Of a DNA stretch of 64,000 nucleotides, positions 27,384 through 64,000 are shown piece after piece (position 1 is the first letter of the stretch; each line of letters opens with the position of its first letter). The stretch is from Acidimicrobiia bacterium (GTDB taxonomy: Bacteria > Actinomycetota > Acidimicrobiia > Acidimicrobiales > Poriferisodalaceae). The stretch covers positions 5,174 through 69,173 of the forward strand of contig DUBN01000073.1 in NCBI GenBank assembly GCA_012960315.1, given 5' to 3'. Below the pieces are notes generated by a model. It was not told the origin of the DNA, made no database searches, and worked only from the letters and a program-made list of their open reading frames with translations. Made by a program: the position numbers and the translations under genes.

Positions 27384-27445
27384 CGGCTTGAGGGTACGCT
27401 GCGGCCGTCTCTAAAAGTGCTTTGACGAACGCTAGTGGGAACAAT

Positions 27446-28201
27446 ATGGAAACCGATCTTGTTGAGACCGACACAAAGGGCCACATAACGATCATTACGC
27501 TGCATCGTCGTGAGAAACGAAACGCGTTTGACCCAAACCTGACGGCTGCTCTCAATCAGGCACTGGATTCATTTGAAGACGATCCCGACCAGTGGGTGGC
27601 GGTTTTGACGGGTGGGATCGACATGTTTTCCGCCGGAAGTGACCTCAAAGAGGGAAGCGGTAAGTCGGATCGTGGCGGCGAGTACGGCATAATTCGCCGG
27701 CGTCGCGTCAAGCCACTCGTAGCGGCGGCGGAAGGCTTGGCTCTTGGCGGAGGAATGGAAATATTGTTTTGCTGTGACCTCATTGTCGCTTCAACCGATC
27801 TTCGCTTGGGGCTGCCTGAAGTTAAGCGCGGTGTGTTACCCACCAGTGGCGGGCTTTTCAGGGCCCTTCGGTCACTTCCGTTGCATGTGGCGAAAGAGGT
27901 TGTGCTAACGGGTGAAGAGCTATCAGCGGAGCGGGCGTTGCAGTATGGCCTAATCAACAGGCTCGTCGAGCCGGGACATGCGTTAGAAGTTGCTGTCGCA
28001 TTAGCCGAAGAGATCGCGTCGAATTCTCCCACCTCCACGCGTCACTCTGTGCAGGCAATGGAACGAATCCTTGCAAGCGGAGACGAACTTGGCTGGTCTG
28101 TCACTGACTACGCTCGATCTGAAGTTTTCGCGAGCGAAGATCGCAAAGAGGGGATCAAAGCGTTTTTTGAACGCCGCGAACCAGAATGGAAGGGTCGCTA
28201 A
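27446..28201 (+). CDS. Enoyl-CoA hydratase/isomerase (crotonase) family
   Basis: ITIITLHRREKRNAF, VAVLTGG...FSAGSDLKE and AAAEGLALGGGMEILFCCDLIVAS. ATG 27446 lies 5 nt after GTGGGA. Stop TAA 28199-28201 overlaps the next ATG. Confidence 0.9.
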   Translation: METDLVETDTKGHITIITLHRREKRNAFDPNLTAALNQALDSFEDDPDQWVAVLTGGIDMFSAGSDLKEGSGKSDRGGEYGIIRRRRVKPLVAAAEGLALGGGMEILFCCDLIVASTDLRLGLPEVKRGVLPTSGGLFRALRSLPLHVAKEVVLTGEELSAERALQYGLINRLVEPGHALEVAVALAEEIASNSPTSTRHSVQAMERILASGDELGWSVTDYARSEVFASEDRKEGIKAFFERREPEWKGR

Positions 28202-28767
28202 TGCGGTTGTCGATTCCTAACGAGGATGAACTTTCTGAATCGCAGGTCAAGCTTCGCGATGCGGTTGTAGGCAGTAGGAAAGGCCTGGGTTCCGAAATTT
28301 GGGGACGCGGCCCGTTTGGAGTGTGGCAGAACGCTCCCAATGTGGGCCATCCTGCATTGGACTTAGGTGGTGCTGTTCGGTTCAGCACCGAGATCCCCGC
28401 CGATGTCCGGGAAGTGGCCATCTGTACGGTTGGGGTTCATTATCGAGCAAAGTTTGAATTCGCCGCGCACAAAGCAATCGGTATCAAAGCTGGCCTTGAA
28501 GCGGATGCGCTCGACCGTCTCGCTCGAGGGGAAAGTCCGGGATGGACCGGGGCTTTAGAGGTGACGCATCGATACACGAAAACTCTTCTGGAGGAACACC
28601 GAGTGACTCAAGGGTTACACGACGAGCTCGCGGCAGCGTTTGGTGAACAAGGTGTTGTGGAAATTGTTACAACCATCGGCTATTACTCCTTGATTTCTCT
28701 AACGCTCAACGCCTTCGAGGTCCCGCTGTCCACTCAAATGGACGATCCGTGGCCGGAAGAAGGTTGA
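28201..28767 (+). CDS. Carboxymuconolactone decarboxylase (AhpD-like/CMD) family protein
   Basis: TAATG coupling at 28199-28203. Pattern LSESQVKLRDAVV...REVAICTVGVHYRAKFEFAAHKAIG, typical of CMD family members that lack a CxxC motif. Confidence 0.75.
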   Translation: MRLSIPNEDELSESQVKLRDAVVGSRKGLGSEIWGRGPFGVWQNAPNVGHPALDLGGAVRFSTEIPADVREVAICTVGVHYRAKFEFAAHKAIGIKAGLEADALDRLARGESPGWTGALEVTHRYTKTLLEEHRVTQGLHDELAAAFGEQGVVEIVTTIGYYSLISLTLNAFEVPLSTQMDDPWPEEG

Positions 28768-28908
28768 ACGCCTCGAGCATCAGGCAGGTTTCCTTTACCT
28801 GAGCGCAACTCCGGTTTATGTCACAAGTGAGGGGGCCAGCCGTTTTCGCAATGGCATCGACAAAGACGACGAGAGACCTCCTTTGCCGGTTGTTAGAACT
28901 TGGCTGGA

Positions 28909-29244
28909 CTATTTGATGAACAGCACTTGACCGATCGACCCACTGACGTTTTCTGCAGGCGCATCGGGCCCGAGTGCATCGCTGCCAAATAGTTCTTCAA
29001 ACTCAGGATCAGCAAAGAAGGCGTCGGTTGCTGCGCCGTATTCGGCGAAGGAGGGGTAACCGAACGTGTGATGGAAAGTCAAAAACCCGCCGCTAGGCCC
29101 GCCGAGTTGTTGAACCAGAGTGTGATACGACGGCCTGATATCTAGTCGCGTCAAAATTTCGTCAAATCTTTCCATTACCCCCACGAAGTCTTCAGCTCGA
29201 CCCGGCTTCACTTTCCAAGTATCGGTCCATACGTGTGCTGGCAT
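28909..29244 (-). CDS. Hypothetical small protein (possibly ferredoxin-like alpha+beta fold)
   Basis: The ORF is open from TTG 29277. ATG 29244 has AAGG about 9 nt upstream. I recognised no family; the amino-acid composition looks protein-like. Confidence 0.4.
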   Translation of the reverse strand: MPAHVWTDTWKVKPGRAEDFVGVMERFDEILTRLDIRPSYHTLVQQLGGPSGGFLTFHHTFGYPSFAEYGAATDAFFADPEFEELFGSDALGPDAPAENVSGSIGQVLFIK

Positions 29245-29398
29245 AATCGCCGCCTTTGTTTCTGGTTTAGTTGTCAAACCATGTCACAGCGCCCCTGTCG
29301 ATGACAAAGCGGAGTGGCAACGGACCGTCCTATGGGATGCTCTGCCACGGGCCGGGTCGTAAACATGAGAAGTTTCGCCGTGATCTACGCTGTGGGCC

Positions 29399-30043
29399 AT
29401 GTCTTCCGAAGCCGTGCAGATAACCGTTTGGTCCGATTACCTCTGACCTTGGTGTTGGGTTGGGGCCGTGCGTCTCGACGAATTAGCTGAACAAGAAGGG
29501 GACGGTATTGCTATCGAATGGAAATCGTTCTTGTTGCGGCCTGAACCTGAGGAGAGGACCCTCGCAGAATTTACTGAATATACGAAAAGTTGGGAGCGTC
29601 CAGCTGGCCTTGAGCCTCTCGCTGGTTTCAACACCCCGTGGTCTGGTGCCAGCCCACCGCCCTCACACTCTTTGCCAGCAGCCATCGCTGGCAAAACCGC
29701 TGCCACGTTCGGCCAAGCGACCTGGCGGCGCTATCACCAAAGGCTGTTGCGTGCCTATTTCATCGAGAACCGCGATATTTCGAATTCCGATGTTCTCTTA
29801 GAAGTAGCTGGCGAAGCAGACATCGATACGAATGTTTTCGAAGAGACTCGGATAGCTAATGGGAAAGACTTTGAGAGTCAGGTGTTCGCTGAGTACAACG
29901 AAGCGCTAAGCAGCGGCGTGAATGGTGTGCCCGCTGTAGTGATTGATCACAGGTATCTAGTGTCTGGTGCAGTCGAAGTAGAGCATTACCAAAAAGCTCT
30001 TGCGCACTACCGAGAAATTCGAGACGATGAAAATAGTGGCTAG
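29399..30043 (+). CDS. DsbA/FrnE-like thiol:disulfide oxidoreductase with in-frame TGA (29444-29446) at the first Cys position of CPWC: candidate selenoprotein (alternatively a nonsense pseudogene)
   Basis: The same frame as track ORF 29468..30043, extended upstream, reads MSSEAVQITVWSDYL[TGA]PWCWVGAVRLDELAEQEG.... The downstream part has DsbA-family blocks (IEWKSFLLRPEPE, NGVPAVVIDHRYLVSGAVEVEHY). I saw no other lesion. Confidence 0.65.
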
Positions 30044-30272
30044 CCGGGGTCTTTGGCCTGTGTCCTCCGTTGGGCCGAGCGTTACGGAATCGTTGTCATC
30101 GAACTAACCAGTGCTGAACTCCAAGAGGTCTTGAGCTCACAGATCAAAGCCATTTCAGCACTCACCAAACTCATTGACGGGACACCCCAATCAGCTCAGA
30201 TACAGGGAACGCAACCAGCATCACTCTCAAATAACCGCTGCTATACATCCACCAGCTAAAAGGATTTTCATT

Positions 30273-31826
30273 ATGAGTTGGGAACAAGAAGTTGTAGAAC
30301 TAGAACGAAGGCTTGGACTCATCCAACAAATGGGTGGTGAGGAAAGCGTCGACTTTCATCATGGGCGAGGAAAGCTAACAGTCCGCGAACGAATCAAGTG
30401 CCTACAAGATCCCGGAACCTTTCGCGAAATTGGGGCGCTCGCTGGGACCCCCATTTTTGACGAAAATGGGTTACTGGAAAGCCTCACTCCGGCCAATTAC
30501 GTGATCGGCACAGCCGAACTCGGCGGCCGACGGGTTGTGCTGTGCGGAGGAGACTTCACCATTCGTGGAGGAGCCGCTGATGGCAACATTGGGCAAAAGT
30601 ACATAGTCGCCGAGACTTTGGCCCGAGATCATCGACTACCGCTGGTACGCCTACTGGACGCAACAGGAGGAAGCGTCAAAACATTCGAAAAACTCGGTCA
30701 CACATATTTGCCGGACACCGAGTCGCCAGATATTTCAACGGAGCTTTTAGGTCAAGTACCGGTCGTGTCCGCAGTTCTGGGATCGGTAGCGGGCCTCCCA
30801 GCGGTGCAGGCATGTCTGGCTCATTTCAGCATCATGGTGAAGGACACGAGCCAGGTATTCGTTGCCGGACCTGCAGTAGTGAAAGAAGGCATAGGGGTCG
30901 ATATCACTAAAGAAGATCTGGGCGATGAACGAGTTCAAATCCCTAATGGCGTCATCGACAACCTGGCCGAAACTGAACAAGATGCTTTTGAGCAAACTCG
31001 AAAATTTCTGTCATATCTGCCCTCGAACGTTTGGCAGATGGCACCACGGTCTGAACCCAAAGATCCGGTAGGTCGTAGAGACGAAATGTTGCTAGAAGTG
31101 ATACCGCGTATCAAAAGACGAATTTATTATCCTCACAGGATCCTTGACGCTGTCCTAGACATCGACTCTTTCTTCGAGATAGCTCCCCTGTCAGGGCGAG
31201 CTCACATAACAGGCTTGGGCCGAGTTGACGGTTACCCCGTCGGCGTAATGATCAACAATCCGCTGTATTACGGCGGCGCCATGGGCCCACTTGAAGCTGA
31301 GAAAGCAATGCGACTCGTTCAGCTATGCGACACTTTCCACCTTCCACTCGTCTGGTTGTGTGACGAGCCGGGCTTCCACGTCGGGCCGGAGAACGAAGTT
31401 CAAGGAATCCTCCGTGGCGGAGCGCGAGCCGTGACGGTCTTCTCAGCTTCGAAAATGCCCTATATCTCTTTTTTGATGCGTCAGTGCTACGGCGTGGCGG
31501 GTGGTCTTCACGTGCGACACAGCGGTATGTACCAGAGATACGCCTGGCCATCCGCTCATGCAGGCTCTATGCACATCGAAGGTGGAACGATGGTTGCCTA
31601 CAAACGAGAAATTCAAAATGCTGAGGACCCGAAGGCGAAACGAGAAGAGATAGAAGCGCGTTTGGAAGCGATCGCGTCTCCGTTTAGGAACGCTCATGCA
31701 ATGGATATCGAGAATCTAATTGATCCACGAGACACGCGACCCTTGCTCTGCGAATTTGTGCAACAAGCTCAAAGCGTTCTACAAACCCAGCTCGGGCCCA
31801 CAGCGGGAGCCTCTTTTAGGCCATAG
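30273..31826 (+). CDS. Acyl-CoA carboxylase carboxyltransferase (beta-subunit-type) domain protein
   Basis: ATG 30273 lies 8 nt after AAAAGGA. Blocks GKLTVRERIKCLQDPGTFREIG, GGDFTIRGGAADG, RLLDATGGS and CDEPGFHVGPENE. Confidence 0.88.
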   Translation: MSWEQEVVELERRLGLIQQMGGEESVDFHHGRGKLTVRERIKCLQDPGTFREIGALAGTPIFDENGLLESLTPANYVIGTAELGGRRVVLCGGDFTIRGGAADGNIGQKYIVAETLARDHRLPLVRLLDATGGSVKTFEKLGHTYLPDTESPDISTELLGQVPVVSAVLGSVAGLPAVQACLAHFSIMVKDTSQVFVAGPAVVKEGIGVDITKEDLGDERVQIPNGVIDNLAETEQDAFEQTRKFLSYLPSNVWQMAPRSEPKDPVGRRDEMLLEVIPRIKRRIYYPHRILDAVLDIDSFFEIAPLSGRAHITGLGRVDGYPVGVMINNPLYYGGAMGPLEAEKAMRLVQLCDTFHLPLVWLCDEPGFHVGPENEVQGILRGGARAVTVFSASKMPYISFLMRQCYGVAGGLHVRHSGMYQRYAWPSAHAGSMHIEGGTMVAYKREIQNAEDPKAKREEIEARLEAIASPFRNAHAMDIENLIDPRDTRPLLCEFVQQAQSVLQTQLGPTAGASFRP

Positions 31827-32193
31827 ATCCGTTACTTCCTAATATCGCCTCCCATAGGCACTTATGGCTCATAGGTGCACGGACCTACCGCTGTTTGAGT
31901 GCTGTTCTCACGCAATGGTAGAGACCCGTAGTTTCTCCAGATGTAGTTGGGATTTCTGGCATGAGAGGGGAGCAATCCACTGTTCTAAATCATTCAGTAA
32001 TTACGGAATCACTCATGCCACAAAGGATATGAAAACAATCGAACAGAGCCCGTAGACGTAACGCCAGTCGCTCTTCTTTGGCGGCGGCTTCCCGGTAAAT
32101 AACTCTTTCAAACTGACTGTCACGATCGTAGGCCTGCAGAAAACGACAAAAGATCGGCCCGAAGGGCAAGCCTCGATCTTGGTAGGCGGTCGA

Positions 32194-32487
32194 TTAGATG
32201 AAGTGAGTTTGGATGGCTTCTCGCGCTGGTACGTCCGTCATTACTGGTTTGGCTCTCATGTCACACACGTCAGCCCAGGCGAGTTGAAACGCAGTACATT
32301 TCGAAAAGTCGTCTGTTTCTACAATCATGGTCCCGGTTCCTTCACCCAGGCAGTGCCAACGGCCAATTAGTTCGACACCGTGGTCGGCTAACAATGATTC
32401 GAGTTGTTCTTGAGTGAATGTTCCAAAGGCGGTGAGGGCATCGCGTCTGCTGGTTTGGAATACCGAATAGTCGATTTGAAACAGCAC
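32194..32487 (-). CDS. Small DUF3303-like protein (tentative)
   Basis: GTG 32487 lies 8 nt after AGGAG. The 97-aa product has ...IVETDDFSKCTAFQLAWADVCDMRAKPVMTDVPAREAI, resembling the DUF3303 C-terminal pattern. The track's 179-aa version adds an Arg/Pro-rich, non-protein-like extension. Confidence 0.45.
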   Translation of the reverse strand: MLFQIDYSVFQTSRRDALTAFGTFTQEQLESLLADHGVELIGRWHCLGEGTGTMIVETDDFSKCTAFQLAWADVCDMRAKPVMTDVPAREAIQTHFI

Positions 32488-32511
32488 GGAGTGATCTCCT
32501 TCTAGAGAAAG

Positions 32512-32531
32512 CGAACCCACCAGTGGGTTCG
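32512..32531. promoter_or_regulatory. Perfect 9+9 bp inverted repeat (CGAACCCAC-CA-GTGGGTTCG), candidate operator or 5' hairpin
   Basis: Read directly from the sequence. It lies 25 nt upstream of the DUF3303-like start (minus strand), inside the ~330-nt divergent region shared with the CaiB-fusion gene. Confidence 0.3.
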
Positions 32532-32820
32532 GTAGCGAACAACCTAGCCAACTACAAGTAGGGCGCTGTGCACCAGCAAAGATAACTCCGAAGCGCAGCC
32601 GGTCCTTGGCTCTGGTGAGTGGCGGATTGGGTTGACTTAGCCTTGGTGGACGTCGGAGTCGGTGTTCGCGTTGATGAAGGCCGGATCTGAGAAAGGCTTC
32701 GTGTATGTGGCTTCCCACAGTGCTCGTCCTCACGCATCTGGCTGTCGCGAGCGACTCGGTCCGCGATGGCCCTAACGAGCGCTAGTTTCTTTGCCGGTCG
32801 GACATAAGGGGGAATTGCGC

Positions 32821-35241
32821 GTGCTGTCGCCGTATCGAGTACTTGATCTCACTGATGAACGAGGCCAACTGGCGGGTGCCACTCTGGCAGACCTTGGGGC
32901 AGAGGTCATTTTGGTGGAGCCTCCGGACGGTTCACGTTCGCGCCGACTACCGCCGTTTGTTGCGGGACGAGAGGGTGACCCTGAAGCATCTCTGTGGTTT
33001 TGGTCATACAACCGCGGGAAGCGAAGTATCTCCATGGATCTTGACGATCCGGCCGATCGCGGACGTTTTCTCGAGTTGGTCGCCGGTGCAGACATTGTCC
33101 TTGAGTCGGATCGGCCAGGAGCTATGGCTGAGCGTGGACTTGGCTACGACGAGCTCGCGGCGGTGAATCCTGAAATCGTGGTGACATCCATTTCTCCGTT
33201 TGGTCAGAGCGGACCCAAAGCCGACTGGGCCGCGACAGATCTGACTGTGGCTGCAGCAGCGATGGTGCCAAAGATGACCGGCGACGAAGACCGCGCACCT
33301 TTACGTGTGCCTTTAGCGCAGTCATTTCTGCACGCTTCAGCCGAGGCTGCAGGAGCGACCCTCATCGCTCTACATGAACGTAACCGTTCCGGTAAGGGGC
33401 AACACGTTGACGTCAGTGCCCAGCAATCTTTTATGCAAGCCACTCAGTCGATGGTTCTGTGTCACTTATACAACTCACCTGAGACGACTCGGATGAGTGG
33501 TGGAGCGGCAGTGGGCCCATTTCGAATTCGCCTCCGCTCTCCGGCTGCCGACGGATTCGTCTCCATCACAATCCTTTTTGGCGAAGCGATTGCCCCGTTC
33601 AGCTCCCGACTTTTCGAATGGATCCATGAGGAGGGCATGTGTGAAGGTAGCGATCTCGAGATTGACTGGGTCAACTTCGTTGAAGGGGTGACAAACGGTC
33701 GTATCGGGCTGGGAGAATACGACCGCATCCAAGAAGTCGCTGCCCAATTCTCAGCGACAAAGAGTAAAGCCGAGTTGCTATCGGCAGCCCGTGAGAAGCG
33801 TCTGCTGATCGTGCCGATTTGCAACGTCCAGGAAGTTGCAGAGCTTGGCCAGTTCGAGGAGCGGGGCTTTTGGCGTGAAATCGAATGCCTTGATCTCGGG
33901 CCAGTTCGATTTCCGGGCCCGATGGCCAAATTTTCTGCTACGCCGCTCGATGTATCGCTGCCCCCACCTGCCATCGGTCAGGACAACGGTGAGATCAAAA
34001 CCCGGGTTGCCGAACCCACCACGGTCGTTGAAGCGATGCCAGTAGCGCCGCTTTCTGATGTCAAGATCCTGGACCTGATGTGGGTGATGGCCGGCCCAGC
34101 CGCAACTCGAGTGTTCGCTGACTGGGGGGCGACCGTGGTGCGCGTTGAGTCCTCACACAAAATTGAGGGAGCGCGTACATTTCAGCCGTTGCTCAACAAT
34201 GAAGGAGGTTCGGAAAACAGCGGACTGTTCCAGAACCTCAACGCTGGCAAACTCGGCCTTACCGTCGCGATGGACAACCCTGAAGCGAGGGAACTTATCC
34301 TCGACCTTGTGCGTTGGGCCGACGTGGTGTGTGAGTCGTTCTCACCAAAAGCCATGGCCGGATGGAACCTGACTTACGAGGATTTGAAGGAGGTGAATCC
34401 TGACGTCATCATGACAAGTAGTTGCTTGTTCGGACAAGACGGCCCGATGTCGCATCTAGCGGGTTTTGGAACCATGGGGGCCTCAATGTCGGGTTTCTAT
34501 GAAATGACTGGTTGGCCTGACCGTGACCCCGCAGGAGTCGCTGGGGCTTATACCGACTACGTCTCTCCCCGCTATCTGGAGATTGCAATCCTTGCTGCCC
34601 TTGACCATCGGCGTCGAACTGGCGAGGGCCAGTACATTGATCTCTCCCAAGCTGAGTCATCGATGAACTTTCTAACCCCGCATCTACTTGGCTGGACAGT
34701 TAACGGGCAGCTAGCCCCGAAGATCGGGAACGCCGACCCGTTGATGTTGCCCCACGGTATCCACCCCTGTTCGGGAGACGACGAGTGGGTTGCTGTCTCG
34801 TGTGAAAACGATGAACAGTGGCGCAGCCTGTGTGACCTCTTGGGTTTTCCCGCCGAGTGGAGCGAAGCCGACATCGCAGCCCGGCGGATCCTTGGACCGG
34901 AGATCGAATCCGCGATCGAAGCGTGGACATCGGTTCGACGGGGAGCCGAGGCGCACTCAAGTCTGCAGGCCATCGGAGTACCCGCCCATGTAGTGCAGGA
35001 CTCGATCGTGGTGGCTAGTGACCCACAACTGGAACACCGCAACCACTTCCGGCAAGCGCCCCATGACGAACATGGGTCGATGTGGATAGAAGGAACCAGG
35101 TTCTCGATGTCTCGCAGCACCGATGCGATCAGCGGCGCGGCACCGACTCTTGGCCAGCACACCTTTGATGTGCTCGAGGGGATACTCGGCTACGACGCCG
35201 ACCACATCGCGGAACTGGCGGTGGCCGGAGTCCTTGAGTGA
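32821..35241 (+). CDS. Tandem fusion of two family III CoA-transferase (CaiB/BaiF) domains
   Basis: GTG 32821 follows AAGGGGGA (32806-32813); the longest ORF starts at TTG 32791. Domain 1 begins YRVLDLTDERGQLAGATLADLGAEVILVEPP. Domain 2 begins VKILDLMWVMAGPAATRVFADWGATVVRVES. Each is followed by the ...G-x-G-Q-x-[VI]-D block. Confidence 0.9.
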   Translation: MLSPYRVLDLTDERGQLAGATLADLGAEVILVEPPDGSRSRRLPPFVAGREGDPEASLWFWSYNRGKRSISMDLDDPADRGRFLELVAGADIVLESDRPGAMAERGLGYDELAAVNPEIVVTSISPFGQSGPKADWAATDLTVAAAAMVPKMTGDEDRAPLRVPLAQSFLHASAEAAGATLIALHERNRSGKGQHVDVSAQQSFMQATQSMVLCHLYNSPETTRMSGGAAVGPFRIRLRSPAADGFVSITILFGEAIAPFSSRLFEWIHEEGMCEGSDLEIDWVNFVEGVTNGRIGLGEYDRIQEVAAQFSATKSKAELLSAAREKRLLIVPICNVQEVAELGQFEERGFWREIECLDLGPVRFPGPMAKFSATPLDVSLPPPAIGQDNGEIKTRVAEPTTVVEAMPVAPLSDVKILDLMWVMAGPAATRVFADWGATVVRVESSHKIEGARTFQPLLNNEGGSENSGLFQNLNAGKLGLTVAMDNPEARELILDLVRWADVVCESFSPKAMAGWNLTYEDLKEVNPDVIMTSSCLFGQDGPMSHLAGFGTMGASMSGFYEMTGWPDRDPAGVAGAYTDYVSPRYLEIAILAALDHRRRTGEGQYIDLSQAESSMNFLTPHLLGWTVNGQLAPKIGNADPLMLPHGIHPCSGDDEWVAVSCENDEQWRSLCDLLGFPAEWSEADIAARRILGPEIESAIEAWTSVRRGAEAHSSLQAIGVPAHVVQDSIVVASDPQLEHRNHFRQAPHDEHGSMWIEGTRFSMSRSTDAISGAAPTLGQHTFDVLEGILGYDADHIAELAVAGVLE

Positions 35242-35401
35242 CCCGAGTTGTGGAGGCATTGTCTCAACACCAGGTTCCTTGAGGGCAGATCTCACCGATA
35301 GTCCCGAAATTTGCCTAATCGAAGATCACTCCAACTGATGACCGATCGAAGGTGGAGGCATATTTCGCCGCGGGATTGACAGATGCCCCTAGGGTGTCGC
35401 T

Positions 35402-62381: not shown

Positions 62382-63509
62382 TCACCCTAAATAGAATTCG
62401 GTGTGTTGCCCCAAAAGAGGTGCTGCGGTCATCGTCCACCAGTCAGCGTTGGTTCTGAACGGGGCACCGGGAACCGCGACTGAGGAGCCATCAGGCAACT
62501 GGGTCTCAGACCAGAACCTGGCGGCCTTCAGATGTGGGTCGTCGAGCAGCGCGTTGACGGTATTGACGGGAGTAACCGGGATGCCCCGCCGTTGGCCTTC
62601 TTGAAACAACTCCTGCCTGCTCTGTCCGACGGTCAGTTCCTCCACCCATGTGTCGATGAGGTCCTGCGTTTCCATCCGAACACCAAGATCTTCGAACACT
62701 TCTTCTGTAATGGTTTCATTTCCGGTCGCTTCCGCTACCCATGAGGCCATTGCAGTCCAATGACGAGGTAATAACACGATGATGGAAACGAAACCGTCGC
62801 TGCACGGGTACAACCCGAATGGTCGACCAAGGTCTCGTCTATTGCCTGAGCGTTCTCGGTGAACTCGGTCATCAAGAAAAACTGGTACCCCAGTTTCTGG
62901 AGCGATGGCAAGTGCGGCTTCTTGCATCGAAATTTCTACCTGTTGCCCTTCGCCACTTTTGCGTCTGGCGCGTAGCGCCAACAGTGTCCCTACGAGCGCA
63001 GAAGCGGCAGATGCGTGGAGTGCGAGTTGAACGTGCCCTGCAGGAGCAACTGGGGCTCGGTCTCGAAAGCCGGTGGCGTAGAGCACCCCAGAGGCCGCCC
63101 ACGCGACAAGGTTTGAGCTCTTCCAAGAGCGCTTGGGTCCTGTTAGGCCGAACGGCACAATGCTGGTTCGAACCGTGGTGTCAGGGAGAAGATCAGGACT
63201 AATCAATGAGTCTTCGGGCAATCGATCTTCAAAAATCACGTCAGCACTAGACAGGATCTGTGCGAGCGAGTCTTTGTTGTCAGGTTCAATCACCACGCTC
63301 CGCGTACCCATTGCGAGGTAACTCCACCAGAGGCTGTTCTCGGGCGGAGCTATCGACTCTGCAAAGGGAGCTAGGTATCTAAGGGGCGAGCCATCAGGAG
63401 GTTCTAGTCGAATTACCTCAGCTCCCAATCCAGCAAATAGGCGAGTTGCGTAAGCCCCTGCGAGCCCGGTTGTGTCGACCACTCGAAGGCCGTTGTAGGG
63501 ACCCGCCAT
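62382..63509 (-). CDS. Family III CoA-transferase (CaiB/BaiF), non-canonical LHASA subtype
   Basis: LRVVDTTGLAGAYATRLFAGLGAEVIRLEPP and QLALHASAASALVGTLLALRARRKSGEGQQVEIS. ATG 63509 overlaps the upstream stop (TAATG). Confidence 0.9.
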   Translation of the reverse strand: MAGPYNGLRVVDTTGLAGAYATRLFAGLGAEVIRLEPPDGSPLRYLAPFAESIAPPENSLWWSYLAMGTRSVVIEPDNKDSLAQILSSADVIFEDRLPEDSLISPDLLPDTTVRTSIVPFGLTGPKRSWKSSNLVAWAASGVLYATGFRDRAPVAPAGHVQLALHASAASALVGTLLALRARRKSGEGQQVEISMQEAALAIAPETGVPVFLDDRVHRERSGNRRDLGRPFGLYPCSDGFVSIIVLLPRHWTAMASWVAEATGNETITEEVFEDLGVRMETQDLIDTWVEELTVGQSRQELFQEGQRRGIPVTPVNTVNALLDDPHLKAARFWSETQLPDGSSVAVPGAPFRTNADWWTMTAAPLLGQHTEFYLG

Positions 63510-64000
63510 TAGAGGTCCCTCGCATCGGCTGTGCCGGGCACCAACAGGTGAATCCAGTCGTCCCAGGGCCGCGGGACAAGCGTCTCTGGTTCGAGTTGTT
63601 CGAATGCGCCCTTATCGGCCACCAGTTGAGATATTTCCTCGTCGGACATGCCAGCAACGTCTCTTAACACTTCGCGGGTGTGTTGAGCCAGCGAGGGGCC
63701 GGCGTCAGTCCATCGACCCGGGGTGCCTTTCAACTTGACGGCGCAGTCACTGAATACATCCCTTCCAAGCCTTGCGTGGGGCGCCACCTGATACCAGTTC
63801 CGGCTCATCGTGTGGGTGTCATGAAGTAAGTCTTCGTTAGTTGAAACGACATGGGCTGCAACGCCCACGCTTTGAAGTCTGTGCGCAAGGTCATCAGCAT
63901 CGAAATTAACCGTCCAGGTGCCGATCTGGCTGTCGAGCTGCTCTTGTTGAGCCAAGCGCAGATCGGGATCGTCGAAATGGTCGTCTGGTAACTCCATCAA
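63509..64000 (-). CDS. Family III CoA-transferase (CaiB/BaiF), C-terminal 163 codons only (5' end beyond window)
   Basis: The ORF is open to the window edge. LQSVGVAAHVVSTNEDLL...GPSLAQHTREVLRDVAGMSDEEISQLVADKGAFE is the typical CaiB-family C terminus. Confidence 0.85.
   Translation of the reverse strand: MMELPDDHFDDPDLRLAQQEQLDSQIGTWTVNFDADDLAHRLQSVGVAAHVVSTNEDLLHDTHTMSRNWYQVAPHARLGRDVFSDCAVKLKGTPGRWTDAGPSLAQHTREVLRDVAGMSDEEISQLVADKGAFEQLEPETLVPRPWDDWIHLLVPGTADARDL

Follow-up and report, generated by a model that had tools for sequence, protein, structure and literature searches.

A two-domain family III CoA-transferase of a marine Acidimicrobiia bacterium as a probable single-chain BbsEF-type heterodimer with one active site

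We describe a gene for a two-domain family III (CaiB/BaiF) CoA-transferase (32821..35241, + strand), recognised by its open frame, its two CoA_transf_3 matches and its orthologues, in a 64,000-nucleotide stretch of DNA that is called the window here. With a probability that we put at roughly 0.85, the encoded protein unites in one chain counterparts of the two subunits of a heteromeric, BbsEF-type CoA-transferase of family III and has one active site, at D579. The gene is a fairly ordinary representative of a known group, the two-domain (BbsEF-type) family III CoA-transferases.

The gene and its two domains

The open frame at 32821-35241 (+) encodes 806 aa from a GTG start. A longer frame could begin at a TTG at position 32791, 30 nt upstream, but the GTG at 32821 is favoured: gene calls for orthologues with 86-90% identity give 806 aa, and similarity to these loci at the DNA level begins just 12 nt before this codon, which together support it as the start. 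Two complete CoA_transf_3 (PF02515) domains were detected in the protein by Pfam with 548.9 bits, against a cut-off of 23.3, and in a profile search of the genome the two halves scored 241 and 311 bits. None of the NCBIfam equivalog models reached its cut-off with the 806-aa protein, and we have therefore withheld a substrate assignment.

Domain 1 (residues ~3-392; 32827..33996, +) has chain A of PDB entry 9fn0 as its best PDB match and, from this and from its clade, is classed as a BbsE-like protomer that lacks the catalytic Asp; on sequence grounds it is presumed to be the non-catalytic protomer. Domain 2 (residues ~411-806; 34051..35238, +) is classed as a BbsF-like catalytic protomer on the basis of its match to 9fn0_B, Foldseek and its clade. 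The linker between them (residues ~393-410; 33997..34050, +) is poorly conserved. It has pLDDT values of 64-72 in the AlphaFold model, and the segment from G386 to L411 ranges from 9 to 63 residues in length (median 30) among 123 relatives.

The AlphaFold model of the whole 806-aa chain, for which a 35-sequence alignment was the input, has a pLDDT of 87.5 and a pTM of 0.92. Each half of this predicted model superposes on a family III protomer with a TM score of 0.84-0.91, and the best Foldseek matches were chains of BbsEF, with target-normalised TM scores of 0.90 for the C-terminal half (9fn0_B/D) and 0.84 for the N-terminal half.

The catalytic aspartate is retained in domain 2

An earlier note on this DNA had stated that domain 2 keeps the catalytic Asp of the family, and our alignments bear this out. 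Both motifs that it quoted were found in the translated 806-aa protein, and the AYTDYVS motif of domain 2 contains D579 (codon 34555..34557, +), the predicted catalytic nucleophile. In phmmer alignments D579 falls opposite the Asp of 4ed9 and opposite D178 of 9fn0_B, and its column is occupied by Asp in every Asp-bearing family III structure among the alignments shown. The residue is invariant in 35 of 35 closer homologues (at least 58% identity) and in 123 of 123 diverse fused relatives (31-50% identity). PDB entry 9fol, which is of the same enzyme as 9fn0, names a 'D178-CoA adduct' in its title. Domain 2 shares its fold and its catalytic Asp column with Frc, CaiB, YfdE and human SUGCT; these enzymes, however, are homodimers with two equivalent active sites. 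At the column of Asp169 of Frc and CaiB, Asp is present in the C-terminal half (D579) and absent from the N-terminal half (F169).

Domain 1 has an aromatic residue at the catalytic column

The degenerate catalytic column of domain 1 lies at F169, within the codons for Q167-S168-F169-L170-H171 (33319..33333, +), as judged by hhalign and by conservation in relatives. F169 was placed at this column in phmmer alignments to 4ed9 and SUGCT, and again when the genome's 74 family III domains were aligned together with MAFFT L-INS-i. With hhalign the profiles of the two domains aligned without a gap, and F169 was paired with D579 and H171 with V581. In the AlphaFold model the helix of domain 1 begins at residue 168 and that of domain 2 at 578, consistent with F169 at the column. 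The alignment to Rv3272, which requires a gap, was the sole one that placed H171 at the Asp column. F169 is flanked by S168 and L170, H171 is at +2, and the nearest acidic residue, E175, is at +6. Given the four concordant placements of F169, no acidic residue lies at or adjoining the column in domain 1, as the earlier note had maintained.

Among the 123 relatives, the column of the N-terminal half is Y in 32, F in 29, W in 22, A in 7, H in 6, E in 4, S in 4 and D in 3. It is aromatic (Y, F or W) in 83 of them and D or E in 7, so not every member of the class has lost the second site. Q167 is kept in 92/123 and H171 in 56/123 (46%) of these diverse fused proteins; both residues are invariant among the 35 closer homologues.

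The asymmetry of the two halves extends beyond this column. A framework is common to both (G26/G436, A27/A437, V29/V439, E33/E443, R41/R452, K67/K477 and D91/D501), and the large domain of the N-terminal half retains most of the framework residues, namely those given first in each pair. Y577, D579, Q610, E612, N637, P644, W656, W667, R688 and D734, in contrast, are conserved in the C-terminal half and their N-terminal counterparts are not. Mean pairwise identity over the small-domain and C-terminal part is 25% in the N-terminal half as against 35% in the C-terminal half, and this part of the N-terminal half is the least conserved region of the protein.

Because the N-terminal half keeps framework residues together with Q167 and H171, which are invariant in the subfamily, ligand binding at a putative second site is possible, and from the sequence this half may bind a ligand. 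The degenerate site could then be a second pocket for CoA, acyl-CoA or the acceptor acid that gates or tunes the live site, with variation in the N-terminal half setting the choice of substrate. We regard this as unlikely. If true, the second pocket would be a built-in allosteric or half-of-sites device, and the roughly 17 fused paralogues in a 2.8-Mb genome would be a diversified toolkit in which variation of the N-terminal half sets the choice among marine organic acids.

A racemase-like second site is not supported

A different use of the N-terminal half had been raised in the earlier note, namely a His-containing site with racemase-like acid/base chemistry. In the form considered here, H171, perhaps with Q167 or E175, would for example racemise or isomerise the CoA ester that the C-terminal half produces, and the protein would be bifunctional, with two chemically different sites. 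The invariance of H171 and Q167 among the 35 homologues with at least 58% identity is in keeping with such a role, as are the framework residues kept in the large domain, and racemases and an intramolecular transferase of family III are among the PDB matches.

The catalytic pair of the Mycobacterium tuberculosis enzyme MCR is His126/Asp156. Two MCR-like paralogues are encoded in the genome and carry the motifs AAGHDINY and GDFGGGG, which we take to be the alpha-methylacyl-CoA racemase motifs that contain the His and the Asp. MCR and AMACR belong to the same superfamily and give weak partial sequence matches to domain 1; however, when the racemase His and Asp columns are set by these two paralogues, they are occupied in domain 1 by T139 and F169. 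H171 sits two residues beyond the catalytic column, occurs in only 56 of the 123 diverse members and is replaced by Met in 9fn0_A. The residues at the two racemase columns, the position of H171 and its partial conservation argue against racemase-like chemistry, and the low conservation of the small-domain and C-terminal part of the N-terminal half also speaks against a second reaction there. We consider a bifunctional enzyme of this kind quite improbable. Given its alignment and conservation, we also rejected a role of H171 as a replacement nucleophile or base as the main interpretation.

The two halves correspond to the two subunits of BbsEF

Benzylsuccinate CoA-transferase BbsEF has two subunits, represented by chains 9fn0_A and 9fn0_B; their roles are taken here from PDB titles and from our own alignments. 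The best PDB match of the N-terminal half was 9fn0_A (E 2e-51, versus 1e-20 for 9fn0_B), and that of the C-terminal half was 9fn0_B (E 5e-62), with identities to the BbsEF subunits of 32-33%. 9fn0_A has Tyr at the column of D178 of 9fn0_B, and Met at the position of H171. Like the fused protein, BbsEF thus consists of two unlike protomers, one without the Asp (Tyr, chain A) and one with it (D178, chain B). The difference is that BbsEF is made of two separate polypeptides, and the protein described here is one chain with a linker of ~18 residues. Literature searches by PDB code and keyword found no paper on the BbsEF structures, and searches on Rv1866 and on phthalate CoA-transferase subunits likewise returned nothing.

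A maximum-likelihood tree was built from the family III domains of the genome and the two BbsEF chains. All N-terminal halves grouped with 9fn0_A and with three Asp-less single-domain proteins (support 99/94), and all C-terminal halves grouped with 9fn0_B and with the partner single-domain proteins (support 100/100). The canonical single-domain enzymes of the genome fell outside both clades, and BbsEF nested among the fused proteins. The branching orders of the two clades mirrored each other, which indicates that the split between the protomers is old and that the two halves evolved together. By its reciprocal best PDB matches and by these two clades, the fused protein belongs to the BbsEF-type heteromeric lineage. 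The view in the earlier note of a single-chain pseudo-heterodimer with one canonical site thus gains support, the N-terminal half resembling the Asp-less subunit of BbsEF and the C-terminal half the Asp-bearing one.

No bss or bbs genes were found near the fused gene, which shows neither the benzylsuccinate operon context nor close similarity to BbsEF. As such genes are lacking nearby, the substrate is almost certainly not benzylsuccinate.

The architecture is the normal state of a large, known class

We examined how common the arrangement is. The genome (2.82 Mb, 96.6% complete) contains 77 CoA_transf_3 matches in ~57 ORFs, and 17 of these ORFs are two-domain fusions. In all 17 fused paralogues the column is Asp in the C-terminal half and F, Y, W, G, H, Q or S in the N-terminal half. 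Three single-domain proteins of the genome also lack the Asp, and the genes for two of the three adjoin a gene for an Asp-bearing single-domain protein; one such unfused pair lies inside the window (62382-64000, - strand). In the unfused pairs the Asp-bearing gene comes first, the reverse of the domain order in the fused proteins.

A full HMMER search of 1.84 billion cluster representatives yielded 5,529 matches at E <= 1e-30, and ~120 of the best 150 were full-length proteins of ~800 aa. At E <= 1e-150, matches were found in at least 2 of 121 genomes, a search in which no more than 8 candidates per genome received a score and which therefore understates the distribution.

The unfused pairs in the same genome, one of them in the window, could suggest that the fusion is an artefact in which two adjacent genes were joined by an assembly or sequencing error. 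Those pairs, however, have the opposite gene order, with the Asp-bearing gene first, and the genome carries 17 fused paralogues. Homologues of the full 800-aa length number in the hundreds, come from independent assemblies, reach down to 31% identity and each match as one uninterrupted stretch. They refute an artefact, to which we assign a virtually negligible probability.

The two-domain class has in fact been described already, with its conserved Asp in the C-terminal domain (Dong et al. 2018, PMC6006322). PtmU4 and DddD are its characterised two-domain members, and mutation of the Asp in the C-terminal domain of PtmU4 lowered activity 125- to 400-fold (PMC6006322). The protein studied here has the features of this class: tandem domains in one chain, a poorly conserved linker and an Asp in the C-terminal domain (D579). 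The rarity implied by the earlier note is accordingly not borne out, since the architecture is already described (PMC6006322) and the genome holds about 17 such genes. In a large enzyme class, an Asp-less N-terminal half joined to an Asp-bearing C-terminal half is the usual condition.

Gene neighbourhood and possible role

An enoyl-CoA hydratase gene (27422-28201, +; ECH_1, E 2.6e-47) and, next to it, an ORF of 193 aa (28186-28767, +) lie on the upstream side of the fused gene. In three orthologous loci (L004-L006, 87% identity) the order is a divergent MFS transporter gene, an enoyl-CoA hydratase gene, an ORF of 188 aa and the fused gene, closely spaced. The window is syntenic with the orthologous loci on both sides (blastn), and an extra 4.0 kb in the window (28783-32808) separates the 193-aa ORF from the fused gene. 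This segment encodes a 122-aa ORF, a DsbA-like protein, a carboxyltransferase and a DUF3303 protein. The neighbours of the fused gene in the window are the hydratase, the carboxyltransferase, the DUF3303 protein and an F420H2 reductase. A further orthologue (L007, 86% identity) has an acyl-CoA ligase gene directly upstream in place of the hydratase. The gene context is thus unstable, with the 4-kb segment in the window and the ligase upstream in L007.

The hydratase and the 193-aa ORF are probable functional partners of the fused gene because the orthologous loci carry both directly upstream of it. The 193-aa ORF had no Pfam or NCBIfam match, and its AhpD-like PDB match was not significant (E 0.076). 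Judged from the hydratase gene conserved upstream in the orthologues, the likely role of the enzyme is to activate a carboxylic acid, with hydration or dehydration of the resulting CoA ester as the next step. Loci of more distant homologues (L001-L003, 60-66% identity), with amidase, 2OG oxygenase, Zn-ADH, ligase and AlaDH genes as neighbours, contain orthologues of a paralogue in the same genome (C63, 66% identity) and not of the fused gene, and were for this reason left out of the inference of function.

The context also bears on the two characterised two-domain enzymes. PtmU4, which transfers sulfur to form thioacids and is paired with an acyl-CoA ligase, has the same two-domain architecture and C-terminal Asp. 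The L007 orthologue is directly preceded by the AMP-binding ligase gene, in the same orientation, and has a rhodanese gene ~6 kb away, an arrangement that could point to a thioacid-forming enzyme. The thioacid cassette of PtmU4, with an adjacent acyl-CoA synthetase and a sulfur carrier, is however absent beside the fused gene in the window and in L004-L006, where the hydratase is the conserved neighbour, and a ligase is present in L007 only. The Asp of PtmU4 is residue 430 and that of the protein described here residue 579, a difference implying that the domains are laid out differently. The thioacid-forming group is a restricted subset of the 2,401 two-domain proteins, reported from Actinobacteria, Beta- and Gammaproteobacteria (PMC6006322). 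That the fused protein is PtmU4-like is, in our judgement, very unlikely.

DddD, a transferase/lyase that acts on DMSP, is similar in size (~820 aa) and has two CaiB domains, at 1-416 and 439-821 (PMC7174347). A DddD-like enzyme would suit the marine Acidimicrobiia lineage, and the sources of homologues include Tara. DddD is, however, reported to be an outgroup to the one-domain and the other two-domain enzymes (PMC6006322), whereas the protein described here falls within the BbsEF-type clade, and no homologue is named DddD by any source. The ddd operon includes a LysR regulator and a BCCT-type transporter (PMC7174347), and neither was seen beside the fused gene. We therefore hold a DddD-like function to be exceedingly unlikely.

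A single-chain heterodimer with one live site

For the single-chain BbsEF-type enzyme that we favour, we propose the following mode of action. The N-terminal half would descend from a non-catalytic, Asp-less subunit and the C-terminal half from a catalytic one, and the two would fold around each other like the protomers of a family III dimer. A single functional active site would be built on D579. This residue is expected to attack the donor acyl-CoA, forming an acyl-aspartyl mixed anhydride, and would then bear CoA as an aspartyl thioester and hand it to the acceptor carboxylate. The mechanism proposed for D579 is the one used by formyl-CoA transferase, and BbsEF shows the same intermediate in its D178-CoA adduct. 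The symmetry-related site in the N-terminal half, occupied by the aromatic F169, would be catalytically dead. The N-terminal half would nevertheless be an obligatory structural partner, whose small domain probably contributes to the live site.

For annotation, a protein of this kind is best treated as a single enzyme with a single active site, here at D579, rather than as a pair of transferases. Its Asp-less half is the partner subunit to be expected, and neither a decayed nor an exotic domain. The genome, that of a marine Acidimicrobiia bacterium very rich in CoA-transferases, contains many modules like the fused gene, which taken alone adds little beyond this genome-wide scale. More notable is the scale itself, with ~57 family III genes, 17 of them fused, in a small marine Acidimicrobiia genome, and these ~57 genes point to a large uncharted capacity for ATP-free activation of organic acids.

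Indels flanking the fused transferase gene

A segment of 4.0 kb (window 28783-32808) precedes the fused CoA-transferase gene, and only 116 bp are found in its place in the 87% identical orthologous loci of relatives (L004-L006). The segment encodes a DsbA-like protein with a thioredoxin fold, an MmdA-like carboxyltransferase that scored below the model cut-off and, on the reverse strand, a 122-aa ORF and a DUF3303 protein. It separates the fused transferase from the enoyl-CoA hydratase and from a 193-aa ORF (28186-28767, forward strand) that is conserved alongside the hydratase in the orthologous loci. No match to this ORF was obtained in Pfam or NCBIfam, and the PDB search returned only a non-significant AhpD-like match (E 0.076). 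Comparison of window 35248-35388 with L004 9428-10790 identified a second indel, on the 3' side of the fused gene, where the gap to the F420H2-dependent quinone reductase is 140 bp in the window, whereas it is ~1.36 kb in relatives. Three small unannotated ORFs are present in this longer stretch.

Unfused and fused family III genes in the genome

An unfused counterpart of the two halves of the fused gene is present at the window end, on the reverse strand. Of its two genes, the Asp-bearing one (63509-64000, family III) is truncated at the edge of the window, and the other (62382-63509) encodes a 375-aa Asp-less subunit with the motif HVQLALHASAAS. Unlike the fusions, which have the opposite domain order, the Asp-bearing member comes first. 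The Asp-less gene lies immediately downstream, the two ORFs touch, and Leu occupies the catalytic column of the Asp-less subunit.

Elsewhere in the genome, an Asp-less (C55:17105-18466) and an Asp-bearing (C60:91-1209) single-domain gene each branch in the tree as sister to the corresponding half of the C90 fusion. The Asp-bearing gene is at the very start of its own contig, and the two may be pieces of a single locus, either a fusion or a gene pair, interrupted by an assembly break.

The closest paralogue of the fused gene, 66% identical, is on C63. Family III CoA-transferases of this 2.82-Mb genome (for example C63:1012-3444, C18:1505-3922, C68:148939-151368, C46:8738-11146 and C11:24704-27112) form a very large expansion, with 77 domain matches in ~57 ORFs, 17 of which are two-domain fusions.
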